Shown: piece after piece, positions 5,127 to 63,152 of the stretch
How the letters are laid out: each line of letters starts with the position of its first letter
Numbering within the stretch: the first letter of the stretch is position 1
From: an uncultured virus (IMG/VR IMGVR_UViG_3300006120_000013)
Lineage: Duplodnaviria > Heunggongvirae > Uroviricota > Caudoviricetes
IMG/VR virus record: IMGVR_UViG_3300006120_000013
DNA: 64,000 bases
Direction: 5' to 3' (one strand)
The notes under the pieces: generated by a model
Databases searched by the model: none
Told to the model about the DNA's origin: nothing
What the model saw: the letters and a program-made list of their open reading frames with translations, nothing else
Translations under genes and position numbers: made by a program

Positions 5127-7187
5127 ATGCCCTTAAAACTAAGAAGAGGCACAAATGCCGAAAGAATAACTATAACACCCGCCGAAGGTGAACTTATTTA
5201 TTCGACAGATACTAAGAAAATTTATGTAGGTGACGGAATAACTCAAGGCGGTATTGACGTTACTGGGGCGGCCAGTTTATTTGGTCCTTTATCTGGAAAT
5301 TTAGACATAAATCATTATAACATTACAGGTATAGGAAATGTCGAAGTTAATGGTATTATCAGTAACGGACCATTATCTTTAAATTCAAACTATATTTCAA
5401 GTTCTTCAGGTTATGTATCACAAGGACTAGGAAATCATATTGGAATTTTAGAATTAAGTACACCTACTAATCTTTTACAAATAAACAGATATTGGTCAGA
5501 TCCTAACGAACCTATCGAAATACAGACAGGTATTACTAATAGTTTTACTTCGTTAATGTCTGATAGAAGAAGTTCTAGAGGATCTGTAGGTATTCCTACA
5601 GCAACTATTCCTGGTGATAATATTGCTTTAGAAAGATTTTGGGGTCATGACGGATTTAATTATCTACCAACTTCAGCAATATGGCATGGTGTTGATCCCA
5701 ACGGAACAGTATCTCCAGGATTTGTTCCTGGTGCTATAGCACTTATAACAGAAGGTATCGGCGGTCCACACGTTGTTAGTGTAGATTCAAAAGGAAATTT
5801 AGGAATAGGTGTATACCCTGAACTTGTACAGGAAAAACTACATGTAGAAGGTAATGCATTAATATCTGGAACTTTAATTGCAGGTGCAGTTAGAGGTTCA
5901 ATTTTTGCTGATAACTCGAGTGTATTGATTGACAGTATATATGGTAATATGTATGCTAATAATTTGTCAGTTACTGGAATTTTAAATTGTGGAGAGACAG
6001 TACAAAAATCTCCAAACGGATATCTTGATATTTCTTCTAGATATGGAATTACCTCAGGTCTTACTTCGTTGATGACTGGAAATTATGCATCAAGAGGATC
6101 ATTAGTTAGTCCTTCATCATTACACACTGGTGATTCAATTAGTTTTATAAGAAATTTTGGTCACGATGGAAGTAACTATGTATTTTCTTCTGGTATACAA
6201 TTTGGATTAGATCCATCTATAAGTTCAAGTATAGCACCAAGTACAGGAAAAATGCCTGGTGCAATTGGTTTCATTGTTGTTGATGAAAATAATATCCAAA
6301 ATTATGTTTCTATAGACTCAGCAGGACAAGTAGGTATTGGAACATTTCCTAATCCAACAACAGAGGCACTCGATGTTAATGGTAATGGTAAATTTAGTGG
6401 TAGTATTACAACAACTTCAATACAACAAAATTTATCTTCAGGAGTTGACGCTACAAAACTATATGGTATTTCAGATGGTGTTAATTGTCTTGTAACTTCT
6501 AATTATGCATCAAGAGGTAGTTTACCATCACCATCTTCTCTCTATTTAGGTGATTCTATTTCTGCTATAAGAAATTATGGATTCGATGGTACCAACTATA
6601 TACTTTCTTCTGCTATAGATTTTGTTTTAGATGGATCATATACTCCATCAACAGGTTATATGCCTGGAGCGATAGCATTTTTTGTTCAAGGATCTTCTGG
6701 ACAAAAAATAACAACTATTAATTCTAATGGTTATTTAGGAATTAATAAATTTCCAAGTGTAACTGAAGAAGCGCTCGATGTTAATGGTAATGGTAAGTTT
6801 AGTGGACACATTACTGTTAATAATTCTACAAATAATAGTTCAGTACAAATTACTGGTTATGCTAATAAAGGTGGTACTGGATATCATGACTTTATGAGTG
6901 TCACTAACACTTATAGTAGTGCTACTAATCCTAACAAATATTTCCGTTTAGATTCATCTGGATCATTCCAAATTGTTGATAGTACTTATAATAATACTTT
7001 ATTCAATTTAACCAATGCCGGTCATACTATTGTTAGAGGTTATGTACAATTTGGTTCTTTCTCCGCTACAGAAAGAGCAGCATTAACTCCTGCTAACGGA
7101 ATGGTTATCTATAATACTACTGCTAATAAATTCCAAGGTTATCAAAATGGTGGCTGGATCAATTTAGACACAGGTGCTGCTGCTTAA
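5127..7187 (+). CDS. Tail-fibre/virion appendage protein with Mtd-like N-terminus and three internal ~140-aa repeats
   Basis: N-terminus LRRGTNAER...PAEGELIYSTDTKKIYVGDG; repeated SRGS...GD.I...R..G.DG.NY...PGAI; C-terminus NGMVIYNTTANKFQGY. Confidence 0.75.
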   Translation: MPLKLRRGTNAERITITPAEGELIYSTDTKKIYVGDGITQGGIDVTGAASLFGPLSGNLDINHYNITGIGNVEVNGIISNGPLSLNSNYISSSSGYVSQGLGNHIGILELSTPTNLLQINRYWSDPNEPIEIQTGITNSFTSLMSDRRSSRGSVGIPTATIPGDNIALERFWGHDGFNYLPTSAIWHGVDPNGTVSPGFVPGAIALITEGIGGPHVVSVDSKGNLGIGVYPELVQEKLHVEGNALISGTLIAGAVRGSIFADNSSVLIDSIYGNMYANNLSVTGILNCGETVQKSPNGYLDISSRYGITSGLTSLMTGNYASRGSLVSPSSLHTGDSISFIRNFGHDGSNYVFSSGIQFGLDPSISSSIAPSTGKMPGAIGFIVVDENNIQNYVSIDSAGQVGIGTFPNPTTEALDVNGNGKFSGSITTTSIQQNLSSGVDATKLYGISDGVNCLVTSNYASRGSLPSPSSLYLGDSISAIRNYGFDGTNYILSSAIDFVLDGSYTPSTGYMPGAIAFFVQGSSGQKITTINSNGYLGINKFPSVTEEALDVNGNGKFSGHITVNNSTNNSSVQITGYANKGGTGYHDFMSVTNTYSSATNPNKYFRLDSSGSFQIVDSTYNNTLFNLTNAGHTIVRGYVQFGSFSATERAALTPANGMVIYNTTANKFQGYQNGGWINLDTGAAA

Positions 7188-45655: not shown

Positions 45656-48442
45656 TTATTTTGGATTAGTTCCACTGCCTACTTGCTGACTAGGAACTAA
45701 TGGTGGTGTAGTAGGACCAACTGATACTGATCCAGATCCTGACGGACTGGAACCAGAAGAGCTAGGAGAAGTTGGATACGATGGTCCACCGCCTGAATTA
45801 ATTCCAGCACTTTGTAACATTCTTTCTACTCTTCCTTTTTTTGATCCGATAAACTGTCTAAGACCTCTTTTAGTTATTGGACCATTAGGATATTCTCTCC
45901 ATCCAGGATTTGCAGCCCATGCTTTACCACCTGTGGGGTAGATTTCTTGTCCTTCTGGAATTTTCATTTTTGCAGGAGCAGCAATAGACAGATATATTTG
46001 TTCTACTCCTTGTGGATTACCATTCTTTTGAAAATATTTTTCTACATAATCTAATTGTTGTGCTCTAGTCATAGATCTTAATGCACCAGTAGTGGTTCCA
46101 ACCGATGCTGCCGCAGAATTTCCAAACTGAATCAATCCAGTATATCCATATCTATTTTGAATACTTGGATTCATAGTAAATCCGGCCTCGGCAGCAAATA
46201 CTGATAATAATTCTGCTAATGTACATCCATGTCTTTGTGCAATTTGTTGTGCTTTAGATAAGAATTCTCTATCTTTTGTCCAATTTGGTGGATAGTCATC
46301 GGTATAATTGCTATCTAATGGTTTTGAATTGTAGGAATTTGCTAAATTTGGAGCATCATGTCTTGAATATTTTGATGTATCTGGTCTTCCTCCAGAATAT
46401 CCGCCATAACTATTTGAAATTCCATCAAGGTCTTGAACTGTTCTTATAGTAAATTGTTTTCCATCTGGATATACTACAGTTCTTTTGTCATCCATATTTA
46501 ATAATCTTACATGAACATTTGCTGGATTTAAATTCTCGTGTTGGAAAGGTTCCCAAGTTGGAACTCTTTTATTAATACAAGACCCCCACCCTTCTGCTGG
46601 AAAACAATTAGGACTAATAAGAGTAGAATAACCTCCACCTGCTGTTTGCATACCTGGCGCACCAGTTGCTTGATCTGCTTCGATTGGTTCTCTAGCAGGA
46701 TACGGAGTAGATGGTGCATCGTTGACAGAATATTTGTTACCATCTTGAAAATGAACTTCTGATCCAGAATTTATTACAGTATTACCAGATGATGTTGAAA
46801 CTAATGTTCCGGCAGATTGTAACATATATCCGCCGCCGCCGGCCTTTAATGCTATAGCACCAGTTCCTTGAATTACTATCAAAGGTGTTTTTTGTGTAAT
46901 TTGTGTACCTGATGCCATAGTTATTTTAGAATCAGCATTTACATTAATATCATTATAACCATTTATTACTACATCATGTCCTGCTAATAGATGTAAATCT
47001 CTACCAGCAATTCTAGTATCACTACCTGATAAAATATGTGTTTGCATATCTGAAGTTATCAAAGCATTTTGCGATCTTACTTCAAAATTTCCTTGAACGT
47101 TTAATAATAAATTACCTGCAATAGTCCATTCATAACTTGTACCTGTAAAATTAATAGAATCACCTCTTAAATGGTTTCCTGATTGTCCTTCAGAATACAA
47201 ATGATTTCCTGCCATAGTACTATGATCATTTTCAGTATGATGAAAAGAACTTCCTGTAACTTTTACACTGTGATCACCACTAGTTGCATTTACAGTATTA
47301 CCTGAAACATTAGTAACATGATTACCATAAACTTGTTGTGCTATATGTCTACCAGCAGTCATTTGTATGTCTGCACCTGAACTCATATGAACACCTTCAG
47401 CAGCATAAAATTCTATTTTACCGTTAGATGTAAATTCCATCCAAGCAGTACCCCTAGAATTTGTAATATAAACAAAGTCTTCCGAACTATGTAAAAGAAT
47501 TTGTGCTCCTCTTCTTGTTCTAATTCTAAATGCTTCATCTTTAGGAAAATCAACTAATCCAGACTCTCCTTTTTCTAAATCAGCGTATTCTGGAGGACCT
47601 TCCCAAGGTCTCGATTTCCTTAAAAATCTTTCATCACCGTCATCCATAACAATACAATGACCGCCCATTCTACTAACAAATTTGTTAATTTTTTGACTGT
47701 CTCTACCTACCATACCTTTTTTAGCACCATTTCTTTTATCGATAGGTCCAGGGGTACTCCATCCATAAACATTGCTAGGACTTTCTCTTCTAGCAGAACT
47801 AGTATGAACTCCTCTATAAGGATCATTAATTGTTCCTTGTTCTAATAATCTTTCAGCAATAGGATGAACTGGTTTTTTATTAGCCTCTACATCTGGATTT
47901 GGTGATTTTGATCCCATTTTAAAAATTTGTCTATTAACTTCACCCACCGGTAAAAAAGTTGTTCCAAAATGAGATTCTGTTCCTGTAACATCTAACCAAT
48001 CTGTATCAGAACTAACTCTTAATTGATCTTGTGGATAAGTGCTACCGGCAATACCAGGAATCATATAATTCATATATGCATCCTGAACACAACCCATCCA
48101 AAATCCTTGTCCCGGATCGCTATCAACAAAAATAACCATAACAGTAACACCAACGTCAGGTGGAACTGCCCAAAAACCATAACTTTTTTGTGTGTCATTA
48201 AATTCTGATGGTGACGCTCCCATAAAATCTACACTAGTGCAACCATAAAAAGGACTTAAATATCTTACAACAAATAATTGTTGAGTTGCTTCTTTTTGAT
48301 TTCCAATAGGTCTTAATAATTCAACTTCTAAAGAACCCTGTTTCATAGGATCTGTATTGCTAACAATTCTTGCAAGATAAGGACCGGGATTTGGAAGAAG
48401 TGTTGTATTAATTAAATTGGGGGCTCTTTTGTCTACTGACAT
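45656..48442 (-). CDS. gp5/VgrG-like baseplate hub/spike with C-terminal lysozyme-like (SLT-type) domain
   Basis: N-terminal OB-fold (DPMKQGSLEV, YGFWAVPPDVG), GHCIVMDDG, beta-helix repeats, C-terminal AAEAG...GLIQFG. Confidence 0.8.
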   Translation of the reverse strand: MSVDKRAPNLINTTLLPNPGPYLARIVSNTDPMKQGSLEVELLRPIGNQKEATQQLFVVRYLSPFYGCTSVDFMGASPSEFNDTQKSYGFWAVPPDVGVTVMVIFVDSDPGQGFWMGCVQDAYMNYMIPGIAGSTYPQDQLRVSSDTDWLDVTGTESHFGTTFLPVGEVNRQIFKMGSKSPNPDVEANKKPVHPIAERLLEQGTINDPYRGVHTSSARRESPSNVYGWSTPGPIDKRNGAKKGMVGRDSQKINKFVSRMGGHCIVMDDGDERFLRKSRPWEGPPEYADLEKGESGLVDFPKDEAFRIRTRRGAQILLHSSEDFVYITNSRGTAWMEFTSNGKIEFYAAEGVHMSSGADIQMTAGRHIAQQVYGNHVTNVSGNTVNATSGDHSVKVTGSSFHHTENDHSTMAGNHLYSEGQSGNHLRGDSINFTGTSYEWTIAGNLLLNVQGNFEVRSQNALITSDMQTHILSGSDTRIAGRDLHLLAGHDVVINGYNDINVNADSKITMASGTQITQKTPLIVIQGTGAIALKAGGGGYMLQSAGTLVSTSSGNTVINSGSEVHFQDGNKYSVNDAPSTPYPAREPIEADQATGAPGMQTAGGGYSTLISPNCFPAEGWGSCINKRVPTWEPFQHENLNPANVHVRLLNMDDKRTVVYPDGKQFTIRTVQDLDGISNSYGGYSGGRPDTSKYSRHDAPNLANSYNSKPLDSNYTDDYPPNWTKDREFLSKAQQIAQRHGCTLAELLSVFAAEAGFTMNPSIQNRYGYTGLIQFGNSAAASVGTTTGALRSMTRAQQLDYVEKYFQKNGNPQGVEQIYLSIAAPAKMKIPEGQEIYPTGGKAWAANPGWREYPNGPITKRGLRQFIGSKKGRVERMLQSAGINSGGGPSYPTSPSSSGSSPSGSGSVSVGPTTPPLVPSQQVGSGTNPK

Positions 48443-51723: not shown

Positions 51724-51758
51724 TATTTATTGCAATAATTAAGTACTCATATTATAAT
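51724..51758. promoter_or_regulatory. Divergent promoter pair: minus-strand late ATAAATA and plus-strand sigma70-like
   Basis: TATTTAT at 51724-51730 (ATAAATA on minus); TTGCAA (51730-51735)-17 nt-TATAAT (51753-51758) upstream of gp55. Confidence 0.65.
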
Positions 51759-52651: not shown

Positions 52652-53413
52652 ATGTTTATCTATAAAATTACAGCGGGCGGAAAAGTATATATAGGGTTTG
52701 ATACTAAACCTACATATAAGAAATCTAGATGGAAAGATCATTGTCGAGAATCGTTAAAAGATAATCCTAAAAGAAAAATCCATATTATCATGAAAGAAGT
52801 AGGAATTGAAAATTGTCAGTATGAAGTAATTGATGATTCTTTTTCTTCTTTAGGATCATTAGCACTATCTGAAATCGAATACATTGAAAAATATAATTCT
52901 TTTAAGAATGGTCTTAATTCTAGTCTAGGAGGAGATGGGTTAGGACACACGGGATTTTCAAAACTTACAGAAGATGAAATACAGAAAATTAGAGAAAAAT
53001 TAGGTTCTAAATTAAAAGATTATAACACTAATATAAAGTGGGCTAATACTACTAAAGAAGATAGAAAAAAGTTAACAGCACATCTTCATACTCAAGAGAT
53101 TTATGAAAAAAGATCTAATACCTTAAAAGAATTTTATAAAGAAAATCCAGAAGAAAAATCTAAAAAAAGTAAAGGTATTACTAATTGGCAAAAACATAAT
53201 CGAGATACTTTACTCAACAACAATAAAAAGAATTCTATAAAAGGAGCAGAAAAAGTTTCTAAAAAAATAAAAGTTGAATTAGAAGATGGTACTCTGCTAT
53301 ACTATAAAAGTAAAAGTGACTTTCAAAGGCAAACTGGCCAGTGGGCTAATACTATTATTCAAAAAACTAAATTAGGTAATTTTTTTAACGGCTACAAAGC
53401 ATGGGAAATATAA
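52652..53413 (+). CDS. Free-standing GIY-YIG homing endonuclease (Seg-like)
   Basis: FIYKIT...VYIG...RW..H...E..YI..YNS...GLN; basic DNA-binding C-terminus; inserted between gp55 and gp47. Confidence 0.85.
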   Translation: MFIYKITAGGKVYIGFDTKPTYKKSRWKDHCRESLKDNPKRKIHIIMKEVGIENCQYEVIDDSFSSLGSLALSEIEYIEKYNSFKNGLNSSLGGDGLGHTGFSKLTEDEIQKIREKLGSKLKDYNTNIKWANTTKEDRKKLTAHLHTQEIYEKRSNTLKEFYKENPEEKSKKSKGITNWQKHNRDTLLNNNKKNSIKGAEKVSKKIKVELEDGTLLYYKSKSDFQRQTGQWANTIIQKTKLGNFFNGYKAWEI

Positions 53414-54427
53414 ATGGCTAATCTTTTCAAGAAAATTGCTGCGATGACTGACATCCATTTTGGCCTTAAAAGTAATTCTAAGATTCATAATGATGACTGT
53501 GAAGAATTTGTAGATTGGTTTATAGAAACTGCCAAGAAAGAAAATTGTGATACCGCAATATTCTGCGGCGATTGGAACCACAATCGAAACACAATCAATA
53601 TTACTACCATGAATGCTGGTTTGTCTTCGTTAGAGAAACTAGGAAAGGCATTTGACAACTTCATTTTCTTTCCTGGTAATCACGACCTCTATTACAAAGA
53701 CCGAAGAGATGTTACTTCTGTAGCATTTGGTAGACATATTCCTGGCGTTAATATGATTACTGAACCTACTGTTATAGATGATGTTGCATTAGTTCCATGG
53801 CTTATAGGCGACGAGTGGAAAAACTTAGCCAAGGTAAAAAGTCGATACATGTTTGGACATTTTGAACTACCGTTATTTTATATGAACGCGATGGTTCAAA
53901 TGCCCGACCATGGAGAATTACAAGTAGATAGTTTAAGAAATAATGAAATTGTTTTTTCAGGACATTTCCATCATAGGCAGGCAAGAGATAATGTTCATTA
54001 CATCGGTAATGCCTTTCCTCACAATTATGCCGATGCCGGAGACGATGACCGTGGTATGATGATTTTAGAATGGGGCGGGACACCAAAATATATTAACTGG
54101 CCAAAAATGCCGACTTATAGAACTGTGAAGTTAAGTCAATTAATTGACAACATGGATACCATGTTAAAATCTAAAATGCATCTACGTGTAGCACTAGACA
54201 TTGATATTAGTTTTGAAGAAGCAAACTTTATCAAAGAAACTGTTATGGGAAATTATGATATTAGAGAATGTACTCTTGTTCCTGAGAAAAAAGAATTAGA
54301 AGGAAATTCAACATTAGAAATTACTAATTTTGAATCAGTTGATCAAATTGTTACCAATCAGATTGTAAACATTGAGAGTGAAAACTATAATAGTAAAATA
54401 TTGCTGGAGATTTATAACAACTTATGA
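53414..54427 (+). CDS. gp47: Recombination nuclease gp47 (Mre11/SbcD-like)
   Basis: TDIHFG, GDWNH, GNHD, GHFE, SGHFH metallophosphoesterase motifs. Confidence 0.93.
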   Translation: MANLFKKIAAMTDIHFGLKSNSKIHNDDCEEFVDWFIETAKKENCDTAIFCGDWNHNRNTINITTMNAGLSSLEKLGKAFDNFIFFPGNHDLYYKDRRDVTSVAFGRHIPGVNMITEPTVIDDVALVPWLIGDEWKNLAKVKSRYMFGHFELPLFYMNAMVQMPDHGELQVDSLRNNEIVFSGHFHHRQARDNVHYIGNAFPHNYADAGDDDRGMMILEWGGTPKYINWPKMPTYRTVKLSQLIDNMDTMLKSKMHLRVALDIDISFEEANFIKETVMGNYDIRECTLVPEKKELEGNSTLEITNFESVDQIVTNQIVNIESENYNSKILLEIYNNL

Positions 54428-56202
54428 TTCGTATTAAGAATTTAACCGTTAAAAATTTCATGAGTGTGGGTAATCAAACTCAAGGAGTTGATTTTGAAAA
54501 AGAGCAACTAACCCTTGTTCTTGGAGAAAACTTAGATCAAGGAGGAGATGATAATGGGTCTAGAAACGGTACTGGTAAAACTACTATCGTTAATGCTCTC
54601 AGTTATAGCATTTTTGGTCAAGCTCTTACCAATATAAAAAAAGACAACTTAATTAATAAGATTAACCAAAAAAATATGTTGGTTACAATTAATTTTGAAA
54701 AAGATGGAACAACTTATCGAATTGAGCGAGGACGTAAACCTACCCTCTTAAAATTCTATGTCAATGATCACGAACAAGAAATCGATGATGTTGACGAATC
54801 CCAAGGCGATAGTCGTAAAACTCAAGAAGCAATTAATGATCTCATAGGTATGACACATACAATGTTCAAACACATTGTAGCACTTAATACCTATACAGAA
54901 CCATTCTTGAGTCTAAGAGCAAATGATCAAAGAGAAGTTATTGAACAACTTCTCGGTATTACTGTTCTATCTGAAAAAGCAGACTTACTTAAAGAACAAG
55001 TAAAGATTACAAAAGATAATATTGTTCAAGAAAATGCTAAAATTGAAGCAATAAAAGCAAGTAATGATCGAATTAAAACTACTATTGAGAGTTTGAAACT
55101 AAAGCAGTCAATTTGGTATAATAAACAAAACGACGAATGTAATAAAATGTATCAAGCAATAACTCAATTAGAAGAAATTGATATTAAAAACGAACTCGAA
55201 AATCACGAAGCATTAAAATTGTGGTTAGAAAATAACGACGCAATTAAGGCTCTTAATAAAGAAAAAAGTAGTCTTGAAAGTGCTATGATCCAAGCACAAA
55301 AAGTAGTAGATAAAAGCGAAAAAGATCTTAAAAAGACCGAAGACCATAATTGTCATGCCTGTGGTCAAACACTTCACGATGAAAAACGTGAACAAATGGT
55401 TAAAAAACTTACTAAAGAACTTAAAGATAATGAAAAGTATCTTAAAGAAGTAAGTGATAAACTTGTTGATATCGGTACGGCATTAGAAGAAATAGGAGAG
55501 ATAAATGCTCGTCCTAATACTTTCTACGACCGTGTAGAAGATGCATATGATCATAAAAATAATTTAGAAAATCTTAAAAATAAAATTGAAGAAGTTAAGA
55601 ACTCTGTAGATCCTTACCAAGAACAAATAAATGAACTTGAGAATACTGCTGTTCAAGAACTCGATTGGACTAAGGTAAATGATCTTACAAGTCTAAAAGA
55701 CCATCAAGAGTTCTTACTTAAACTTTTAACAAATAAAGATTCATTTATTCGTAAGAAAATTATAGATCAAAATTTAAGTTACTTAAATCAACGTCTAACT
55801 TATTATCTTGATAAGACAGGATTGCCACACCAAGTAACATTTCAAAATGATCTGAGTACAGAAATTACTCAACTTGGACAAGATTTAGATTTTGATAATC
55901 TATCAAGAGGAGAACGAAACAGACTTATTCTAAGTTTGAGTTGGGCGTTTCGTGATATGTGGGAAAATCTATATCAACCTATTAATTTATTGTTTATTGA
56001 TGAGTTGATCGATAACGGGTTAGATGCTGCTGGTGTAGAAAATTCACTTGCAATCCTAAAAAAGATGGCTCGTGAACGAAATAAGAATATATATCTCATC
56101 TCCCACAAGGATGAACTTGTAGGAAGAGTGAATAATGTTCTAAAAGTCATTAAAGAAAATGGTTTTACTTCTTATTCAAATTGTATAGATATAGTTGATT
56201 AA
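54424..56202 (+). CDS. gp46: Recombination ATPase gp46 (Rad50/SbcC-like)
   Basis: KNFMSVGN, Walker A NGTGKTT, coiled coil with zinc hook CHAC, signature LSRGE, Walker B LFIDE, ISH. Confidence 0.94.
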   Translation: MIRIKNLTVKNFMSVGNQTQGVDFEKEQLTLVLGENLDQGGDDNGSRNGTGKTTIVNALSYSIFGQALTNIKKDNLINKINQKNMLVTINFEKDGTTYRIERGRKPTLLKFYVNDHEQEIDDVDESQGDSRKTQEAINDLIGMTHTMFKHIVALNTYTEPFLSLRANDQREVIEQLLGITVLSEKADLLKEQVKITKDNIVQENAKIEAIKASNDRIKTTIESLKLKQSIWYNKQNDECNKMYQAITQLEEIDIKNELENHEALKLWLENNDAIKALNKEKSSLESAMIQAQKVVDKSEKDLKKTEDHNCHACGQTLHDEKREQMVKKLTKELKDNEKYLKEVSDKLVDIGTALEEIGEINARPNTFYDRVEDAYDHKNNLENLKNKIEEVKNSVDPYQEQINELENTAVQELDWTKVNDLTSLKDHQEFLLKLLTNKDSFIRKKIIDQNLSYLNQRLTYYLDKTGLPHQVTFQNDLSTEITQLGQDLDFDNLSRGERNRLILSLSWAFRDMWENLYQPINLLFIDELIDNGLDAAGVENSLAILKKMARERNKNIYLISHKDELVGRVNNVLKVIKENGFTSYSNCIDIVD

Positions 56203-56203
56203 A

Positions 56204-56461
56204 ATGCGTATATATCGTGTTGATGATAGAGAAGTTAAAGTAGAAAAAGATTTACACGATCAGATAATGATTGAAATTGTCAAATACTTTGAAGCAAACG
56301 AATTATGGGAAACCAAAGGATGGGACTATAAAGGTCTTGAGGCAAGAAATGCATTAGGAAGATTAAGAGTTGTTGCCCGAAGAAGACGAATGGAAATACA
56401 AGAAAAAAGAAAAAAAAGAGTAAAAAAATCAGATAAACAGAAAGGTAAAAGTAATGAGTGA
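56204..56461 (+). CDS. Small basic protein, Hc1/histone H1-like paralogue
   Basis: G..ARNALGRLRVVARRRRMEIQE aligns with the next ORF (G.RARKALGEM.K..KARRNEI); Lys/Arg-rich tail. Confidence 0.6.
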   Translation: MRIYRVDDREVKVEKDLHDQIMIEIVKYFEANELWETKGWDYKGLEARNALGRLRVVARRRRMEIQEKRKKRVKKSDKQKGKSNE

Positions 56462-56648
56462 AACAATTAAAACAATCGCAGATCATTTTGCTGCTTGGCA
56501 AGCCGAAGATGCAAAGTTTGTAGGTGGTAATTCTGCTGCTGGTACTAGAGCACGTAAGGCCCTTGGAGAAATGAGCAAGGCAATTAAGGCTCGTCGTAAC
56601 GAAATCACAGCAGAAAAGAACGCCCGCAAGGAAGCAAAAGCGAAGTAA
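56454..56648 (+). CDS. Hc1/histone H1-like small basic protein
   Basis: KF..GNSAAGTRARKALGEMSKAIKARRNEI, the pattern of the Hc1 family N-terminal domain. Confidence 0.72.
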   Translation: MSETIKTIADHFAAWQAEDAKFVGGNSAAGTRARKALGEMSKAIKARRNEITAEKNARKEAKAK

Positions 56649-57062
56649 TTGACTTGGCACTATCAAGGTGCCGTCATTGAGGAACTACCAGAAGATTGTG
56701 TTGGATTTGTTTATTGCATAACCAATACAACCACTGGTAGAAAGTATATAGGTAAAAAATTAGCAAAGTTTTCCAGAACAAAATACAAGACGGTTACGCA
56801 GAAGAACGGGAAAAAAATTAAAAAAAAGATCAGATCAAAAGTAGATTCTGATTGGCAAGAATATTGGTCAAGTTCTACGGAACTAAAAGATGATGTTATA
56901 TCTTTAGGGGCAGACAAGTTTACTCGAGAGATACTAAAGTATTGTAAGTCAAAAAACGAACTATCGTACTACGAAGCAAAATACCAGTTCGATTTTGATG
57001 TATTGTTAGATGGGAAGTTGTGGTATAATAAATGGATTTCTGTGAAGGTAAGAACGCTTTGA
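56649..57062 (+). CDS. Minimal GIY-YIG nuclease (SegE-like family of T4-like phages)
   Basis: GFVYCIT...RKYIGKK, SDW..YWSSS, FTREIL, YYE, WYN; TTG start directly after the upstream stop; no separate DNA-binding domain. Confidence 0.82.
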   Translation: MTWHYQGAVIEELPEDCVGFVYCITNTTTGRKYIGKKLAKFSRTKYKTVTQKNGKKIKKKIRSKVDSDWQEYWSSSTELKDDVISLGADKFTREILKYCKSKNELSYYEAKYQFDFDVLLDGKLWYNKWISVKVRTL

Positions 57063-57709
57063 CTTATGTATATTGGTTACATCTGCCTGAGCATACTGAC
57101 GCAAATATAGAAGGTTATGTTGGAGTTTCTAGAAACCCATCTTACCGTCTCTGGGAACACCGCAACGACGTGAAAAAAGATAATCACTGCAACCCTTACC
57201 TATCTAGAGTTATTAAAAAATATTCTAACAATCTAACTCAAACAATTTTATTCGAAGGAAGCGAAGAAGAGTGTTACGATTATGAAGAGAAACTCCGCCC
57301 AATTAAAAATATAGGCTGGAATCTCAACAAAGGTGGGTTTCACCCCCCGTCTGCATCTGGTAGAGTATTATCTGCTGATCATAAAGTTAAAATTGGTAAA
57401 AGCAATACAGGAAAAAAACATCCACACAACGAAGAGGCCAAACAAAAAATCTCTCAAGCTCGTAAAGGCATATCCTTATCTAACGTAACTAAAGAAAAAA
57501 TTAGTGATAAAAGAAAATCTCAAGTATTTTCAGAGAATACTAAACAAAAAATGAGTGATTCTCACAAAGGCAATGTTCCAGGGAATGCCAAAACAATAAA
57601 AACACCTTTAGGCACGTTTACTTCAATTAAAAAAGCAGCCAAGGCATATAATTTATCAAGATTTAAGTTTGAAAATTATATCAAACACAATCCAGATTTC
57701 AGTTTCTAA
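57059..57709 (+). CDS. GIY-YIG homing endonuclease with NUMOD3-like repeats
   Basis: YVYW...GYVGVS...RL.EH...E...GWN.NKGG, then four repeats of H/S.E.K.KIS..KG type. Probable TTG start 57059 overlapping the upstream TGA, with GAAGG SD at 57044-57048. Confidence 0.85.
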   Translation: MTYVYWLHLPEHTDANIEGYVGVSRNPSYRLWEHRNDVKKDNHCNPYLSRVIKKYSNNLTQTILFEGSEEECYDYEEKLRPIKNIGWNLNKGGFHPPSASGRVLSADHKVKIGKSNTGKKHPHNEEAKQKISQARKGISLSNVTKEKISDKRKSQVFSENTKQKMSDSHKGNVPGNAKTIKTPLGTFTSIKKAAKAYNLSRFKFENYIKHNPDFSF

Positions 57710-57720
57710 TTTATAGGCTA

Positions 57721-58066
57721 TAGGTCCTGTTTGGTCGAAGTAGTTCGACCCTCATCGAGTCCACAATTGTGGTCAGACTTTGAGTACCGTTAAACAATGC
57801 TCCTAAAAACCTTGGAAACTAGGAACGAGTCCAAGGCATCGCAAGATGTGTCGTGGTAGGTTGGGAAAGCACAGAGCCCGTGGAGCGTAAAAATACCTAC
57901 TTCCGTATCTCGGCTGGTGTAACTCACATGAAGTTATCGAGATTGGTGGAACCGTAGTAGGTTCCATCTGACTGATATAATCTACATGAAATTATCTCTT
58001 AAATCAAAAAGAAAATGTGATGCTTGAGTTTACGAAAGCAATCACTGATGAGCGTTAGCTCATCAC
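57721..58066 (+). ncRNA. Putative large structured non-coding RNA (family not recognised)
   Basis: Only long ORF-free gap in the window; 119/250 GC (about 48%) over 57721-57970; at least 8 helices, a GCAA tetraloop, a pseudoknot candidate, and G-U pairs that only work on the + strand. Confidence 0.65.
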
Positions 58067-58072
58067 TTAATA

Positions 58073-58079
58073 ATAAATA
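58073..58079 (+). promoter_or_regulatory. Late promoter ATAAATA
   Basis: Same motif as in front of other structural genes; upstream of ATG 58103. Confidence 0.55.
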
Positions 58080-58102
58080 ATATACACTACAAGAGAGCAA
58101 CA

Positions 58103-58963
58103 ATGAATCTAAATGATCTTAATGAAGCACCAATGGGAATGTTGAATAAATTTGGACAAAAAATATTGTCTAAGATTCCTGGAAGTATAGGACATCAAGC
58201 AAAAGGTAAACTTGATACTGGTCGTGTTGCTAATCTTTGGAAAGATCAATATATGAAATACCTTGGTCAAATTGGTCAAAAACATCCTAGTTCAGAAAAT
58301 TTATCAGATTTTTTAAAATCAAAAGGATTTACACCTGACGATATAACAAATGTAATTAAAGAATCCTCTTTAGCATATGAAAGAATCTTAACTGGTAAAG
58401 AAGTAGATAGTTTAATCTTAAAAGCTGTTCAACAATCTGCTAGTAGATCTCCGAGTGGTCGAGTTGAACCACAAAGTGATTTAATTTCTCCAAATCAAGC
58501 ACCTAATAATGTTCCTACAAAAGCACCACCGGTACAATCTCCAAATCAAGCACCTAATAATGTTCCTACAAAAGCACCTTTAGCAAAAACAGCATCACCT
58601 GTACAAAAAAGTAATAATTCTATAAGTTCTTATCTTAATTCTTGGACAAAAGATATTAAATCAGCAACAAGTGATAAAGAAAAATTCGATCTTGCTAGAG
58701 AAATGATTAAATTTTTGTCTGATCGTAAAGGATCACCTGAAGCAAAATCAGGTGCTGCTGCGGCAATGAGTGTTCTTAAGAGAATGAATAATCCATTATT
58801 AGCAAAAGCTGCACAAGGATTAAGTCATTTAAGAATGGAACGTGCAAATTATATTATAGCAAGCAATCTTTTAAAAGAAAATAACATTTATTGGAAAGAT
58901 CTTGGATATAAAATTGTAATTTCTGAATCAACTTTAACACATGTAGTAATTGCTTGCCGCTAA
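58103..58963 (+). CDS. Hypothetical late protein with a Pro-rich tandem-repeat linker
   Basis: MNLNDLNEAP N-terminus; SPNQAPNNVPTKAP occurs twice. Confidence 0.7.
   Translation: MNLNDLNEAPMGMLNKFGQKILSKIPGSIGHQAKGKLDTGRVANLWKDQYMKYLGQIGQKHPSSENLSDFLKSKGFTPDDITNVIKESSLAYERILTGKEVDSLILKAVQQSASRSPSGRVEPQSDLISPNQAPNNVPTKAPPVQSPNQAPNNVPTKAPLAKTASPVQKSNNSISSYLNSWTKDIKSATSDKEKFDLAREMIKFLSDRKGSPEAKSGAAAAMSVLKRMNNPLLAKAAQGLSHLRMERANYIIASNLLKENNIYWKDLGYKIVISESTLTHVVIACR
58487..58578. repeat. Intragenic direct repeat, 41 identical bp, 51-nt period
   Basis: TCTCCAAATCAAGCACCTAATAATGTTCCTACAAAAGCACC at 58487-58527 and 58538-58578. Confidence 0.92.
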
Positions 58964-59172
58964 AAGAACGGCAAGCCTGATTTCTTGGTAGTTTCTAAGT
59001 TTTCTTTAATTATTCCTGAAATAATTTGTCTATCTTCAATACACATATAATGTGCATCTTCGTAAGATACACCGCCTCTCATGTACCAACACATTTTCAT
59101 CAAATCTTGTTTTATATCTTTTGACTCCTTATCAAGTTTTTCTACTTCCTTGAGGATCTCAGGGAGATCCAT
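58960..59172 (-). CDS. Baseplate hub assembly protein, gp51-like
   Basis: Small ORF directly after the gp26-like gene; WYMRGGVSY..A..M..EDR pattern. Confidence 0.6.
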   Translation of the reverse strand: MDLPEILKEVEKLDKESKDIKQDLMKMCWYMRGGVSYEDAHYMCIEDRQIISGIIKENLETTKKSGLPFF

Positions 59173-59183
59173 ACTAAGGAGTC

Positions 59184-60071
59184 TTATCCGAAAAAATTTG
59201 ATTGGTCAAACGTTATTGGTATTTCATATTCTTCAGGTGCACCAGCAGCAATATCTTCTAGGGTTGCAACAACCTTCATAGGTTTTAACGAACTATTCTC
59301 TTTCATTTTTTCTAGATGCTTTAATATTAAGCTAAACATTTCTCTATCAGCATTACTAAAAAATTCAGATATTAATGCCTTATCAGTAACTTTACCTTCT
59401 GGGGTATCTATAGAAACTATGCTCTTAGTGACTATATTAATGGTTAAATCTGTTAATTTCTTAAAACTATTAGCAAATGCTTGTAGCTTTTGTTCGTCTG
59501 GAATTGTCTCATCATTAACTAACCTAAAAATTTTCTGTTCTTCGAAAGTTCTAAGACTGTTTTCTGTAAATTCTTTATAAGTTATTGGTCTAATTTCAAC
59601 AATAATTTCATCATTAATTCTAATATGTGGTTCAAATTGAAATGATGTAAGTTGATCTAATAGTATTCTTAAATCTATTTCGAAATCTTTTGACTCACCT
59701 GTTCCGGGAACTTTAGTTGTTAGTTCTAATTTTTCTCCATAGGTAGCAAGTCTAATAGCAATCAATACAGCATCACTATCAATACTAGGCATTGCCCAAG
59801 GATTTATAATATTTGGAATACAACTTTTAATAACATCAACAGTTGCTTCTCCATTTAAAAGAGCATCTGGGGTCTTAAAAGTTAGTTCATCCTTTGCAGT
59901 CATAGCATAAACTGGAATTTCTCCACTTTCAGTCATCTTAATTGCTCCAGGTGGATAAAAGTTTCCACCACTTGGTAACTTTAGATAAATTTTAGGTTGT
60001 CTAAAATACTTCTTTAAAGGATTAGCTGGGGCTTGATTAGAAGCCGAACTAGGAGGAAGTGGAAAATTCAT
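59184..60071 (-). CDS. gp26: Baseplate hub subunit, gp26-like
   Basis: YFRQPKIYLKLPSGG, MTAKDEL, D.D..LIAIR.ATYGE, C-terminal ITFDQSNFFG. Confidence 0.75.
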   Translation of the reverse strand: MNFPLPPSSASNQAPANPLKKYFRQPKIYLKLPSGGNFYPPGAIKMTESGEIPVYAMTAKDELTFKTPDALLNGEATVDVIKSCIPNIINPWAMPSIDSDAVLIAIRLATYGEKLELTTKVPGTGESKDFEIDLRILLDQLTSFQFEPHIRINDEIIVEIRPITYKEFTENSLRTFEEQKIFRLVNDETIPDEQKLQAFANSFKKLTDLTINIVTKSIVSIDTPEGKVTDKALISEFFSNADREMFSLILKHLEKMKENSSLKPMKVVATLEDIAAGAPEEYEIPITFDQSNFFG

Positions 60072-60082
60072 TTTTTACTCCA

Positions 60083-60113
60083 ATAAATAATGTGCGTATT
60101 CCTTATATTTATA
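60083..60113. promoter_or_regulatory. Face-to-face late promoters
   Basis: ATAAATA on + at 60083-60089 (toward the tape-measure gene) and TATAAATA on minus at 60113-60106 (toward gp26). Confidence 0.55.
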
Positions 60114-60137
60114 TGCGTAGATAACTGGTGAAAATTA

Positions 60138-63100
60138 ATGGCCAATAAAGATAAAGTTGTAGTTAAAGGAAGTGATTTTGATGGAGCAATTTTTGAAAAT
60201 GCTGCAACAGAAGAAACACTTAAATCTCTAGTTAAAGCACTTAACTCAAAAGAAAAAGGTGCAGGAGATAAAGCACAAAAACTTTTTAATAAGGCTCTTG
60301 AAAAAAATATTAGATATATCGAAGATTCGTCAGAAAAACATAAACAATACATAAAAGATTTAGAAAGTTTAAGTGAAAAAACAAAATCTTTTGGAAATAC
60401 TTTATATGATATTAGTGGAATGGCAATAAGTGGAACATTTTCATTAATCAGTTCTACTGGAAAATCGTTAGTTGATTTTTTTAATAAAGGATTTAATGCA
60501 TTTGAAAAAACAAATTCAGTTGGTGCAAGTTTTAATTATAATATTTTAGAATTAATGAAAACTGCTGCTGAAGCAAGAATGCCAATTGAAGAATTTACTC
60601 AATTTATCTCAGAAAATTCTAAAGCTCTTGCTGCATTTGGTGGAACTGTTACTGAAGGTGCAAAAGCATTCAGTGGAATACGAGATCAATTTACTGATCC
60701 TACTCTTAACAAAGAATTATACAATTTAGGATACAATTCAGAAAATCTTAATAAAATTTTAGCAAGACAATTGCAAACAGAAATGATTTCTGGTAGATCA
60801 AGAGAATTAGATAAAACAAAATTTACAAAAGAATTAAAAGAATATACAAAAGATTTAAATGTTCTTTCAAAAGTTACTGGAGTTTCTACAGATCAATTAC
60901 AAGAAGGTGTATTACAACAACTTTCTGATGGTAGAATGATGGCTTTACAAACAAAACTTACAGGTAAAGCCTTAATAAACTTTAGAGATGGATTAGCACT
61001 AATGAATGCTGAGTTAGATCCTAAAGTTTTTGATAGTTTAAAGAATATGATGAGTGGAGTTATCGATCCGGGAGATAAATTTGCAAAAATGTTAACTGTA
61101 GCTGCTCCAGGAATCTTAGAATTTCAAGAAGCATTAGGTGAAGGTCGATTAGACATTGAACAACAATTACGAGGATATGAAAGACAAGTTGGTCAAATTG
61201 AAAATTTTCTAGGAAGATTTTCTAAACAACAAATTGCTAGAATACCAGAACTTAAAGCAATGCAAGAATATCTTGCATCTATTAAGAAATTTACAGGATC
61301 AAATGGCAAAGCCGAACTTGAAGGAAGGCAAGCCATGGATGGAATAATCGGTTTATTCTCAAGTTTTGGAGAAATAATTAACAGAGTTAAAAATCTTTTT
61401 CTTAAAGCATTTGTTAGCAGTGGCACAATGAAAAAAATTCAAGATGCTTTTAATAAACTTGCAGAAATTATACAAAATAAAGCCCCTGCCATTATATCTA
61501 AATTAGAACCAGTTATGAATAAGGCTGCTGATTGGGTTGATCAACTTGTTGATAGTATTTCAAATTTCATTGATAGTTTCTTAAGAGGAGATTTAAAACC
61601 TGAAAATTTATGGAATTGGGTTAGACAAACATTTTCAGGTGCTATAAATGTTATAACAGAAGGTATAAGTGCTGTTATTAGTGGATTATTAGGACAAACT
61701 CCAGAACAACAATTACAAAAAGAAGCATATAAAAAAGCAACTCCAGAAGAACAAGAAAAAATGCGTAAAGAAAATCCTGCATTAGCACTTCCTGATGTTG
61801 GTGGTATGTTTGATAAAATGACTAGCGGATTAAAATCTTTAATAAGCATGGTTCCTTCATTAGCAGATTTAGGTAAGTTTTTTGGTGTAACAGCAGTAGG
61901 ATCTGTTGTAGCAGGAGCAGGACTTGCAGCAGGTATGGGATTTTTAGCAAATGGATTACAAAAATTAGTTGCTCCTGCTTGGGAATTAACAGTTCCGGTT
62001 GGAGTTTTAGGTGGAGCATTCTGGGCAGTTTCTGAAGCCATAAAATCTGTTGGTGATAGTTTTGGTAAAGTCATAGATTTCTTTAAATCTATGAAAGAAA
62101 TAAATGCTGATGAAATTATTAAAGGAACAGGTGCTATTACTTTACTTGGAGGAGCCATTGCTTCTTTAGGAGCAGGTGGAATTGTAAACTTCTTAGGTAG
62201 TGGTGGAATAGATAAATTAGTTGATTCTCTTAAGAAAATAAATGATATTAATATAGAAAAACTAACACAAGCTGGTCCAGCCTTAAAAGCATTTCATGAA
62301 GGAGTAGCATCTTTTACAGGTGGTGGAGTATTAGAAGCATTAGGCGACGGAATTAAGGAATTTGCCGGAGGAAAAGGTATAGAATCAATTGTATTTTCTT
62401 TATCAAATCTAGGAAAAATTGATTTATCTAAACTTGACTCTATTGGAAATGTTACAACATTATTAACATCTTTAAAACCATTTTTAGATACTAATGTTTC
62501 TCAAAAATTGCCAAACTCTATGAATACTGTAAAAGATTCTCTAATAAGTTTTGTCAAAGATACGTCCGAATCAATTTCTAAATTAACACCTTCTTCTGTA
62601 CAAGTTTTTGTCGGGTTCGTAGATGGACTTTCAAAGTTTTCTAGTGTCGATGTTACTAAAATATCAAACTTGTCTAATAGTTTAACAGAATCATTTGTTA
62701 ATCTCAATCAAATTAATTTTGATAATGCTAATAAAAATATATCTTCTTTTGCAGCAACTATATCTAAATTATCTAATTCTGACATGGTTGCTGTAAGCAA
62801 TTCTATTGCAGAAATTAGCAAAGTTAATACTACTATAAATGATAATCTCACAAATCAATCAAAAGGAGTTGATGATTATATAAAATCAATTGATAAATTG
62901 TCTGACAGTTTAACTAAATTAGAAAAACAATTAAAAGATATGCCTAGTATTGCTAAAGCCTCAGTTGATAATACTGCTTCACCGTCAACTAGAGTTATTG
63001 CTTCATCGAATCCTACTTCAGAAATGACCACAGATGACCTACAAAAACAACTAAATAATAAAATAGACGAATTGATAATACATATAGTAGAGATGAAGCA

Positions 63101-63152
63101 GAATACTAAAGATACTGCTGACTCTGTTAAAGGTCGTAGAAGCGCAGTTTAA
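60138..63152 (+). CDS. Tape-measure-like protein
   Basis: 1004 aa, helical, Ala/Gly/Ser-rich, with a central hydrophobic Gly/Ala segment; adjacent to hub genes. Confidence 0.65.
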   Translation: MANKDKVVVKGSDFDGAIFENAATEETLKSLVKALNSKEKGAGDKAQKLFNKALEKNIRYIEDSSEKHKQYIKDLESLSEKTKSFGNTLYDISGMAISGTFSLISSTGKSLVDFFNKGFNAFEKTNSVGASFNYNILELMKTAAEARMPIEEFTQFISENSKALAAFGGTVTEGAKAFSGIRDQFTDPTLNKELYNLGYNSENLNKILARQLQTEMISGRSRELDKTKFTKELKEYTKDLNVLSKVTGVSTDQLQEGVLQQLSDGRMMALQTKLTGKALINFRDGLALMNAELDPKVFDSLKNMMSGVIDPGDKFAKMLTVAAPGILEFQEALGEGRLDIEQQLRGYERQVGQIENFLGRFSKQQIARIPELKAMQEYLASIKKFTGSNGKAELEGRQAMDGIIGLFSSFGEIINRVKNLFLKAFVSSGTMKKIQDAFNKLAEIIQNKAPAIISKLEPVMNKAADWVDQLVDSISNFIDSFLRGDLKPENLWNWVRQTFSGAINVITEGISAVISGLLGQTPEQQLQKEAYKKATPEEQEKMRKENPALALPDVGGMFDKMTSGLKSLISMVPSLADLGKFFGVTAVGSVVAGAGLAAGMGFLANGLQKLVAPAWELTVPVGVLGGAFWAVSEAIKSVGDSFGKVIDFFKSMKEINADEIIKGTGAITLLGGAIASLGAGGIVNFLGSGGIDKLVDSLKKINDINIEKLTQAGPALKAFHEGVASFTGGGVLEALGDGIKEFAGGKGIESIVFSLSNLGKIDLSKLDSIGNVTTLLTSLKPFLDTNVSQKLPNSMNTVKDSLISFVKDTSESISKLTPSSVQVFVGFVDGLSKFSSVDVTKISNLSNSLTESFVNLNQINFDNANKNISSFAATISKLSNSDMVAVSNSIAEISKVNTTINDNLTNQSKGVDDYIKSIDKLSDSLTKLEKQLKDMPSIAKASVDNTASPSTRVIASSNPTSEMTTDDLQKQLNNKIDELIIHIVEMKQNTKDTADSVKGRRSAV

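Follow-up and report, generated by a model that had tools for sequence, protein, structure and literature searches.

A large pseudoknotted RNA with two co-varying 7-mers in uncultured marine T4-like phages

A 64,000-nt stretch of DNA from an uncultured virus (IMG/VR record IMGVR_UViG_3300006120_000013), referred to here as the window, is part of a T4-like phage, and positions 57710-58066 of its + strand encode a large, folded, pseudoknotted noncoding RNA (ncRNA). This RNA lies directly behind two genes for GIY-YIG nucleases, one of them SegE-like, and is conserved in more than 100 uncultured marine phage contigs. It is real, widespread and uncatalogued in its marine form, and its freshwater relatives contain the known motif Polynucleobacter-1 (RF01718). 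On balance, we read it from sequence comparison as the product of an autonomous ncRNA gene: a stable, highly structured RNA, the marine variant of a phage RNA family, which would present two recognition sites in the form of two identical 7-mers, R1 and R2. The coordinates of all features are collected in Table 1.

The first-pass annotation of the window had singled out this region as a gap of high GC content without open reading frames (ORFs), which was confirmed. Positions 57710-58102 (393 nt) were the largest stretch in the window without an ORF of at least 60 aa on either strand, the next largest being 68 nt, and the GC content was 47.6% (119/250) over 57721-57970 and 42.9% over 57710-58066, compared with 31.4% for the whole window. 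Two - strand ORFs in the gap (45 and 54 aa) overlap a region in which relatives have insertions of 0 to ~90 nt and G-U pairing on one strand. The 3' end of the RNA was placed by the terminal hairpin and by a late-promoter-like ATAAATA at 58073. Folding of the single sequence gave a mild signal against shuffled sequences (z = -2.47 for the + strand and -2.49 for the - strand), which did not separate the strands; single-sequence folding was thus indecisive, and the case for an RNA rests on its homologues.

The search of Rfam proposed in the first-pass annotation was run, and the whole window gave no match at the gathering threshold. At E up to 10 over 56000-58300 the sole match was a chance miRNA on the other strand, outside the region, and 11 marine-type loci matched no family at E up to 1, RF01718 included. 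The window therefore showed no Rfam model match for GOLLD, ROOL, HEARO, IMES, group I or group II introns, RNase P or the known self-cleaving ribozymes, and ARAGORN found 0 tRNA or tmRNA genes, in agreement with the earlier opinion that the region is neither of these. A group I intron was also considered and rejected, since the upstream ORF is closed by its own stop codon at 57709, the ORF behind the gap is equipped with an ATG of its own (58103) and a promoter-like motif, and the RNA of relatives sits between two complete genes.

Relatives of the RNA were reached through the neighboring proteins. The 286-aa protein encoded downstream led to a syntenic locus, L004, in which the gap behind the SegE-like gene is long and folds well (z = -4.45), and the SegE-like protein was then used as an anchor for 80 loci, from at least 591 relatives. 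Iterated nhmmer searches detected a conserved element of ~230-260 nt in 73 of the 80 downstream stretches; among the 7 stretches without the element, 4 have at most 209 nt of downstream sequence. A comparison of the intergenic regions behind SegE-like homologues, which had been suggested as a check, thus recovered the 3' core with co-varying helices. The window groups with locus L009 in a divergent marine subtype, with an identity of 79% over 429 columns spanning the full gap. With a 17-nt pattern of this subtype at least 120 viral contigs were listed, and an nhmmer subtype profile confirmed 118 of the 120, of which 110 scored at least 100 bits. The window was matched at 57799-58004, with 171 bits, by a covariance model built for the marine central domain (CM R1, not to be confused with repeat R1), the training set of which includes the window. 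Another match of a covariance model, at 5613-5752 on the - strand of the window (17 bits, E = 0.044), was taken as noise. A blastn search with the window-type and freshwater-type RNAs against 50,697 named phage records gave no match, at the limited sensitivity of blastn. Three contigs from metagenome-assembled genomes (L206, L207 and L208; 73, 335 and 153 kb), binned as Crocinitomicaceae and Neomarinimicrobiota, carry the arrangement of gp46, SegE-like gene and RNA; the protein matches of L207 and L208 are identical. These contigs are probably phage DNA that was mis-binned, or a hint at the host.

The fold was examined by covariation. In alignment A6, made with MAFFT from 81 marine central domains and compared with 500 shuffles and with slid controls, 87.7% of the cells in the proposed helices were paired, whereas the slid controls reached 33-49%, and the covariation score was 0.205 compared with 0.107 after shuffling (0/500 shuffles reached it). 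Covariation exceeded all 500 shuffles and all slid controls in each of three alignments (marine central, freshwater and 5' set). The supported helices of A6 contained 174 G-U cells and 20 A-C cells, and this excess indicates that the RNA is read from the + strand; the same comparison was undecided on strand in the freshwater set (63 vs 50) and in the 5' set (12 vs 13). The first-pass annotation had described, by eye, a large pseudoknotted RNA with G-U pairs that form only on the + strand. The covariation in relatives and the G-U excess bear out the RNA as a whole, the strand claim holding in the marine central domain.

Most of the individual helices also stood. The 5' domain of the window type is common to 13 sequences (the window and 12 others), other marine subgroups having a different one. 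In their alignment, A8, the 5' helices were 89.8% paired, 12 of 20 pairs changed on both sides, and the score was 0.487 compared with 0.169, which supports the predicted GGTCGAA/TTCGACC and CTCA/TGAG helices; CCAC/GTGG was part of the same test. The complementarity of TGTTT/AAACA was kept, but solely through register shifts judged by eye. The long-range pairing proposed as ATGCTCC/GGAGCGT, tested here as helix P1, was 89% paired in A6, and all five pairs changed on both sides (one pair AU:35, UA:33). Four of five pairs of P2 (CCTTGGA/TCCAAGG) covaried. Hairpin P3 was less well supported: at its site, relatives have a hairpin whose length varies and whose loop is often of the GNRA type, with insertions of 0 to ~90 nt, and it was left out of the counts because the alignment is unreliable there. 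The GTAGGT/ACCTAC helix was 99% paired with two covarying pairs. The TGGG/CCCG helix within it was invariant: its sequence is kept, but no variation supports or refutes the pairing. A 3-bp helix, GTG/CAC, added in this analysis, was 100% paired with 2 of 3 pairs covarying. Two crossings, that of the 3-bp helix with GTAGGT/ACCTAC and TGGG/CCCG and that of P1 with GTAGGT/ACCTAC, make the core a double pseudoknot. A possible contact between GGAA and TTCC was 100% complementary, but with three of four pairs invariant and one G-U in 81 sequences it was uninformative.

Helix P6 (ATCTCG/CGAGAT) was misaligned by MAFFT and was tested directly. A contiguous helix of at least 5 bp in the same register was present in 80 of 101 sequences, compared with 56% with shuffled partners, and a C-G to U-A exchange was seen, TCTCGG/TTGAGA alternating with TCTTGG/TCAAGA. 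This outer helix of the original prediction was thereby upheld, while its inner TAACT/AGTTA stem was poorly supported (59.7% paired in the MAFFT alignment). The predicted hairpin P7 (GGTGGAACC/GGTTCCATC) held as well, with 99.2% paired, one pair changing on both sides (CG:73, UA:8) and many G-U exchanges in A6. Further downstream, the stem equivalent to 58018-58046 (outer helix and 2-bp inner helix) covaried in the freshwater relatives and partly in the marine ones, and 7 of the 8 pairs of the terminal hairpin changed on both sides, in up to 20 of 40 sequences.

The two 7-mers were an unusual feature of the RNA. R1 and R2 agreed in all positions in 144 of 145 sequences (99/100 marine, 45/45 freshwater), across 12 marine and 8 freshwater variants. 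Each variable column of R1 had its highest mutual information with the matching column of R2, and for three columns this equaled the whole entropy; no third column stood out as a partner of R1 and R2 in the mutual-information scan. Each repeat is preceded by a TGAC-N6-8-AYYY-like stretch, and the spacing between them was 51-68 nt across sequences, with no multiple-of-three pattern. That the repeats are identical, not complementary, suggests two equivalent sites for one sequence-specific partner. Pairing between R1 and R2, given by RNAalifold for the freshwater type, was rejected because it failed in the marine type: when we read through the variants ourselves, CATG, a palindrome of 4 nt, or a wobble form of it occurred in roughly four fifths of the marine sequences but was missing from variants such as ACAGAAA, ACAGGAA and ACATAAT. 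A role of the repeat as a mimic of a translation start was rejected too, since 0/6 ACATGAA sites in the window start an ORF of more than 15 aa. Elsewhere in the window, 46506-46515 (AATCTTACATGAA) resembles the R2 unit AATCTACATGAA plus one T, probably by chance.

The freshwater relatives connect the RNA to Polynucleobacter-1, which the 2010 report (Weinberg et al.; PMC2864571) describes as an orphan motif from 16 sequences and marks in its table as tentatively cis-regulatory ('cis-reg? y'). RF01718 (gathering score 37 bits) matched 8 of 12 relatives' loci scanned, with 93-119 bits, beginning 0 to ~30 nt past the stop codon of the preceding gene, usually the SegE-like gene, and covering the first ~140 nt of freshwater RNAs that are 445-540 nt long as extracted (e.g. 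L004:2487-2946 and L045:3430-3894). The rest of these RNAs had no Rfam match on the scanned loci, though its helices covary. In the freshwater loci examined, Polynucleobacter-1 would thus make up no more than the 5' end, ~140 nt, of a far longer RNA. The marine RNA is like these RNAs in directly following the preceding gene's stop codon and in having a homologous 3' module, the same pseudoknot topology and the co-varying 7-mer pair; it differs in that its 5' domain in the window has other helices and that the window and the 11 marine loci lack an RF01718 match even at the relaxed thresholds given above. The window-type profile matched the 3' module of ~38 freshwater loci (E 1e-18 to 1e-5, profile positions ~262-408). 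In 45 freshwater sequences three helices were found in the marine crossing order, H1, H2, H3, H1', H3', H2'; they were 96%, 98% and 88% paired, with a score of 0.395 compared with 0.156. CM R1 gave one weak match on 51 freshwater loci (L072, 29 bits). The marine and freshwater cores are thus alike in architecture but not alignable by sequence, and their kinship consists in the 3' module and the topology.

We lean towards regarding all of these RNAs as one family with a variable 5' domain, a conserved double-pseudoknot core and a conserved 3' module; the latter is made up of hairpin P7, the two repeats, the GA-flanked hairpin and the terminal hairpin. The family would share its double-pseudoknot topology and homologous 3' module among at least three interchangeable 5' domains. 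The 5' domain of the marine majority (e.g. L086 and L144) starts TAAGGTTGGCGGGCCAGTTT...CCGCTGTGGAAAAAG, which has a loose likeness to Polynucleobacter-1 (first hairpin and GGAAA stretch), although the RF01718 model misses it; this domain may be a distant Polynucleobacter-1 homologue. The earlier proposal of a new large ncRNA class is therefore right in that the marine form is uncatalogued, but the RNA is not without relatives, as the freshwater type holds RF01718.

The relation of the RNA to the GIY-YIG genes was investigated next to these comparisons. A SegE-like gene lies upstream on the same strand in 62 of 63 RNA loci with at least 800 nt of upstream sequence, and in 28 loci viewed the start of the RNA coincides with the upstream gene's stop codon. 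The 225-aa homing-endonuclease gene that separates the two in the window is absent from L009 and L004, where the RNA begins at the SegE-like stop codon. Compared with L009:3340-3450, the 225-aa gene begins within the SegE-like ORF, whose final 31 nt it overlaps, and stops 0-3 nt short of the conserved RNA start TTATAGGCTATAGG; its insertion altered the C-terminus of the SegE-like protein. Extra genes separate the RNA from the SegE-like gene in the window, L005, L008 and L080, and the RNA is kept in all of them, which suggests that the junction is a homing hot spot; the 225-aa enzyme would be a homing endonuclease that has settled beside a very conserved RNA gene.

The RNA was also present outside the T4-like clade. 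In the non-T4-like lineage L131 (L131 and L209 are one contig), with L131 the one exception among the 63 loci, it precedes the genes for the small and large terminase and is surrounded by ORFs that belong to no known family. The RNAs of L131/L209 and L210 were matched by nhmmer and that of L213 by CM R1 (65 bits, E = 4.7e-11, outside the training set). No SegE-like or gp46 homologue was found in 3.0-4.0 kb per locus of L131/L209, L210 and L213 (none within ~1.3-1.4 kb of the RNA). Two members of the same lineage, L212 and L214, had no RNA. Conversely, homologues of the SegE-like protein occur in 254 phage records, and the homologue in phage Melnitz (52% identical) has no such RNA behind its gene. 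The synteny noted in the first-pass annotation, with the RNA directly behind GIY-YIG genes, thus holds in one T4-like clade but does not extend to the L131 lineage. Since the RNA occurs in a second lineage without a SegE-like gene nearby, the nucleases are read as neighbors; as far as gene order can tell, they look like neighbors of the RNA, not its partners.

Table 1. Positions of the RNA, its structural elements and the adjoining genes in the window
Feature	Position	Strand	Basis or remark
Whole structured ncRNA, marine variant, ~357 nt	57710..58066	+	full-length homology to L009; profile matches in relatives
Variable 5' domain	57710..57798	+	A8, 13 sequences
5' helix GGT/ACC	57723-25 / 57786-88	+	5' domain
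Possible helix TGTTT/AAACA	57728-32 / 57792-96	+	by eye
5' hairpin GGTCGAA/TTCGACC	57733-57750	+	A8
5' helix CTCA/TGAG enclosing CCAC-AATT-GTGG (57761-57772)	57751-54 / 57781-84	+	A8
P1, long-range helix GCTCC/GGAGC	57799-57803 / 57882-57886	+	crosses P4, pseudoknot
P2 hairpin CCTTGGA/TCCAAGG	57810..57836	+	loop AGGAACGA invariant
Possible contact GGAA/TTCC	57822-25 / 57901-04	+	uninformative
P3 hairpin CATC-GCAA-GATG, GNRA loop	57837..57848	+	alignment A6
Pseudoknotted core	57853..57900	+	3-bp helix crosses GTAGGT/ACCTAC and TGGG/CCCG
3-bp helix GTG/CAC	57853-55 / 57870-72	+	added in this analysis
Helix GTAGGT/ACCTAC	57856-61 / 57895-57900	+	A6
Helix TGGG/CCCG	57862-65 / 57877-80	+	invariant
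P6 helix ATCTCG/CGAGAT, large loop with repeat R1	57907..57943	+	direct register test
Repeat R1 ACATGAA, preceded by CTC	57926-57932	+	in P6 loop
P7 hairpin GGTGGAACC/GGTTCCATC	57945..57968	+	A6
Repeat R2, TCT + ACATGAA	57981..57990 (7-mer 57984-57990)	+	58 nt downstream of R1
GTGAT/ATCAC + GCTT/AAGC around short GA-flanked hairpin GAGTTTACGAA	58018..58046	+	minimum-free-energy fold
Terminal hairpin TGATGAGC-GTTA-GCTCATCA	58047..58066	+	covariation
Late-promoter-like ATAAATA ahead of ORF 58103-58963	58073..58079	+	
gp46, Rad50-like	54424-56202		family scan; in T4-like window
Hc1 histone-like ORF, 64 aa	56454-56648		PF07432, E = 5.6e-13
SegE-like gene, GIY-YIG domain only, 137 aa	56649-57062	+	PF19835, E = 8e-31
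GIY-YIG + NUMOD3 homing-endonuclease gene, 225 aa	57032-57709	+	phrog_314, PF07460; between SegE-like gene and RNA
ORF of 286 aa	58103-58963		own ATG at 58103; 3' of RNA
Baseplate hub gene	in the window	-	

The signals around the RNA were analyzed for its likely mode of expression. No sigma-70-like + strand promoter and no intrinsic terminator were found in 56900-58300. ATAAATA, which we take to be the core of the T4 late promoter, was depleted in the window (11 found vs 61 expected), as was TATAAATA (2 found vs 18 expected), and copies just upstream of gene starts were found at 51724, 52627, 58073, 60083 and 60106; this pattern is as expected if a T4-type late promoter core is avoided elsewhere. 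Because one copy stands between the RNA and the next gene, the late mRNA of that gene would not include the RNA. From the start at a stop codon, the lack of an own sigma-70-like promoter and the end before the late promoter, we infer that the RNA is most likely co-transcribed and processed: it would form the 3' end of an early or middle transcript through gp46, the SegE-like gene and the nuclease gene, and then be released.

Among the neighboring genes, the gp46 of the window was at most 50% identical to that of named phages, so that there is no close cultured relative, and the gene before it is one we take to be an Mre11-like gp47 from its translation and place. The Hc1-like ORF encodes a small basic protein adjoining the recombination genes, and its copy in L004 is 75% identical. 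The 286-aa protein gave no family match; its conservation in relatives is limited to the N-terminal ~60-110 residues, and the peptide SPNQAPNNVPTKAP occurs in it twice, as a direct repeat. The window has a third GIY-YIG homing-endonuclease-like gene (253 aa, 52652-53413; phrog_314 and phrog_5123), with ATAAATA just upstream, which stands between the gp47 gene and a 274-aa ORF presumed to encode a gp55-like late sigma factor.

How might such an RNA act? In the reading that we favor, an autonomous RNA acting in trans, the pseudoknotted core would serve as a rigid scaffold holding two single-stranded copies of the 7-mer, R1 in the loop of P6 and R2 after P7. Tentatively, and with less confidence than we have in the autonomous gene itself, this scaffold may bind its partner in two copies, or a single copy of it through two sites. 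Since the two copies change together in ~20 ways, the partner would more likely be a nucleic acid than a protein. Several observations weigh against this reading. The complement of R1 and R2, sought within ~260 nt on either side, gave only inconsistent, low-complexity matches, and no further or antisense copy of the repeat unit was found in the 64-kb window. The near-perfect adjacency to the SegE-like gene and the start at its stop codon would also fit a functional pair, and independence from this gene is judged on contigs of 5-19 kb, so that the gene could lie elsewhere in those genomes. In both phage lineages the RNA closely precedes late or packaging genes and shares their strand, and this position likewise leaves room for a role in cis. 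A bolder version, which we think improbable, would make the RNA the programmable recognition subunit of a phage ribonucleoprotein, with two guide-like 7-mers that engage, each by way of a TGAC anchor, two sites of a nucleic-acid target and with the SegE-like nuclease as candidate partner, or would make the repeats take-off and landing sites for a polymerase copying ~58 nt, as the ACA motifs do in DRT2.

The same position is the starting point for a cis-acting mRNA element, either a 3' untranslated region that stabilizes or ends the early transcript, or a leader with riboswitch-like control of the late gene. We consider this unlikely, although it stands ahead of the other alternatives: the RNA invariably lies directly in front of late or packaging genes and points the same way, its start at the upstream stop codon leaves no room for an own promoter, and Polynucleobacter-1 carries the tentative cis-regulatory mark in the 2010 table (PMC2864571). 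However, the ATAAATA copy behind the RNA in the window would keep it out of the late mRNA, no terminator-like site was found in 56900-58300, and a length of up to ~560 nt with two pseudoknots and long invariant stretches exceeds what stabilization of a 3' end needs. That start at a stop codon would also suit an RNA subunit, guide or scaffold, of the minimal SegE-like nuclease, with the 7-mers guide-like; the gene is upstream on the same strand in nearly all of the marine loci (62/63), the RNA was found in 73 of 80 SegE-anchored loci, and the 137-aa protein is a catalytic domain alone (PF19835) without a DNA-binding domain of its own. Such a pairing is nevertheless doubtful in our opinion, as the RNA occurs without a SegE-like gene within 1.3-1.4 kb in L131/L209, L210 and L213, the Melnitz homologue lacks the RNA, the 254 phage records with protein homologues gave no blastn match to the RNA (with the limited sensitivity of blastn), and a guide of 7 nt is too short for specificity.

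A putative ribozyme, which might excise itself from the early transcript with R1 and R2 as equivalent cleavage or ligation sites, would account for the release of the RNA from a polycistronic transcript, and the compact double-pseudoknot core, the long invariant stretches (e.g. GTAGGTTGGGAAAG..CAGAGCCC) and the GNRA-capped peripheral hairpins are in keeping with it. It seems a slighter prospect than the nuclease subunit, since no Rfam ribozyme or intron matched even at E up to 10 and the search for an internal guide with complementarity to R1 or R2 turned up none. The first-pass annotation had guessed at a ribozyme, a nuclease guide or scaffold, or a replication primer, and none of the analyses made here spoke in support of these guesses. 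The last alternative places the function in the DNA, as an endonuclease target, an origin or a packaging site whose hairpins form in DNA and whose repeats are protein-binding iterons. Direct repeats flanking a hairpin do resemble iteron layouts, and homing endonucleases do insert at the edge of the RNA, but the repeat motif does not recur in the window, pairing is kept on one strand only (174 G-U vs 20 A-C cells), and the covariation seen in the long-range and pseudoknotted helices would not be expected of duplex DNA; we regard this explanation as very improbable.

A short pair of matching sequences within a pseudoknotted RNA has a counterpart in the ncRNA of DRT2, for which a preprint (bioRxiv 10.1101/2024.05.08.593200) describes matching ACA-1 and ACA-2 motifs, through which the growing cDNA jumps back to where the template begins. 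The likeness would be one of logic only, namely two short identical sequences that must match, whereas the match in the phage RNA is 7 nt and not 3, and its spacing of 51-68 nt has no 3n constraint. No reverse transcriptase family was found in the window ORFs scanned (52652-63152), nor was one seen near the RNA in the loci viewed, where outside the window the family scan covered the ORFs of L131. A 7-mer pair that stays identical through ~20 sequence changes is unusual, and it points to a sequence-specific partner that can be searched for.

The omega-RNAs of TnpB and IscB (HEARO) abut the ORFs of their nucleases, and the phage RNA is like them in being a large structured RNA whose start coincides with the end of a nuclease ORF of the same orientation. 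It is unlike them in that the nuclease is of the GIY-YIG and not the RuvC or HNH type, transposon ends and an Rfam match are absent, and the RNA is also found without a nuclease gene nearby. T4 SegB, a free-standing Seg homing endonuclease encoded in a tRNA cluster, offers a parallel for the setting: there too, a GIY-YIG homing-endonuclease gene adjoins an RNA gene of high conservation, and some relatives have the endonuclease gene while others lack it, although the adjoining RNA in the phages studied here is not a tRNA. A conserved RNA gene would explain why homing endonuclease genes pile up at this junction.

As a molecule, the RNA resembles GOLLD and ROOL (see also bioRxiv 10.1101/2024.12.08.627333), the large, intricately folded orphan ncRNAs found by comparative genomics and carried by phages and prophages. 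Unlike these RNAs, it matches no Rfam model, is smaller (357 nt in the window, up to ~560 nt in relatives), and occurs in lytic T4-like phages by recombination genes, not by tRNA genes. The few orphan 'ornate' phage RNAs gain with it a further large and intricately folded member, whose carriers are abundant, uncultured T4-like phages of the sea.

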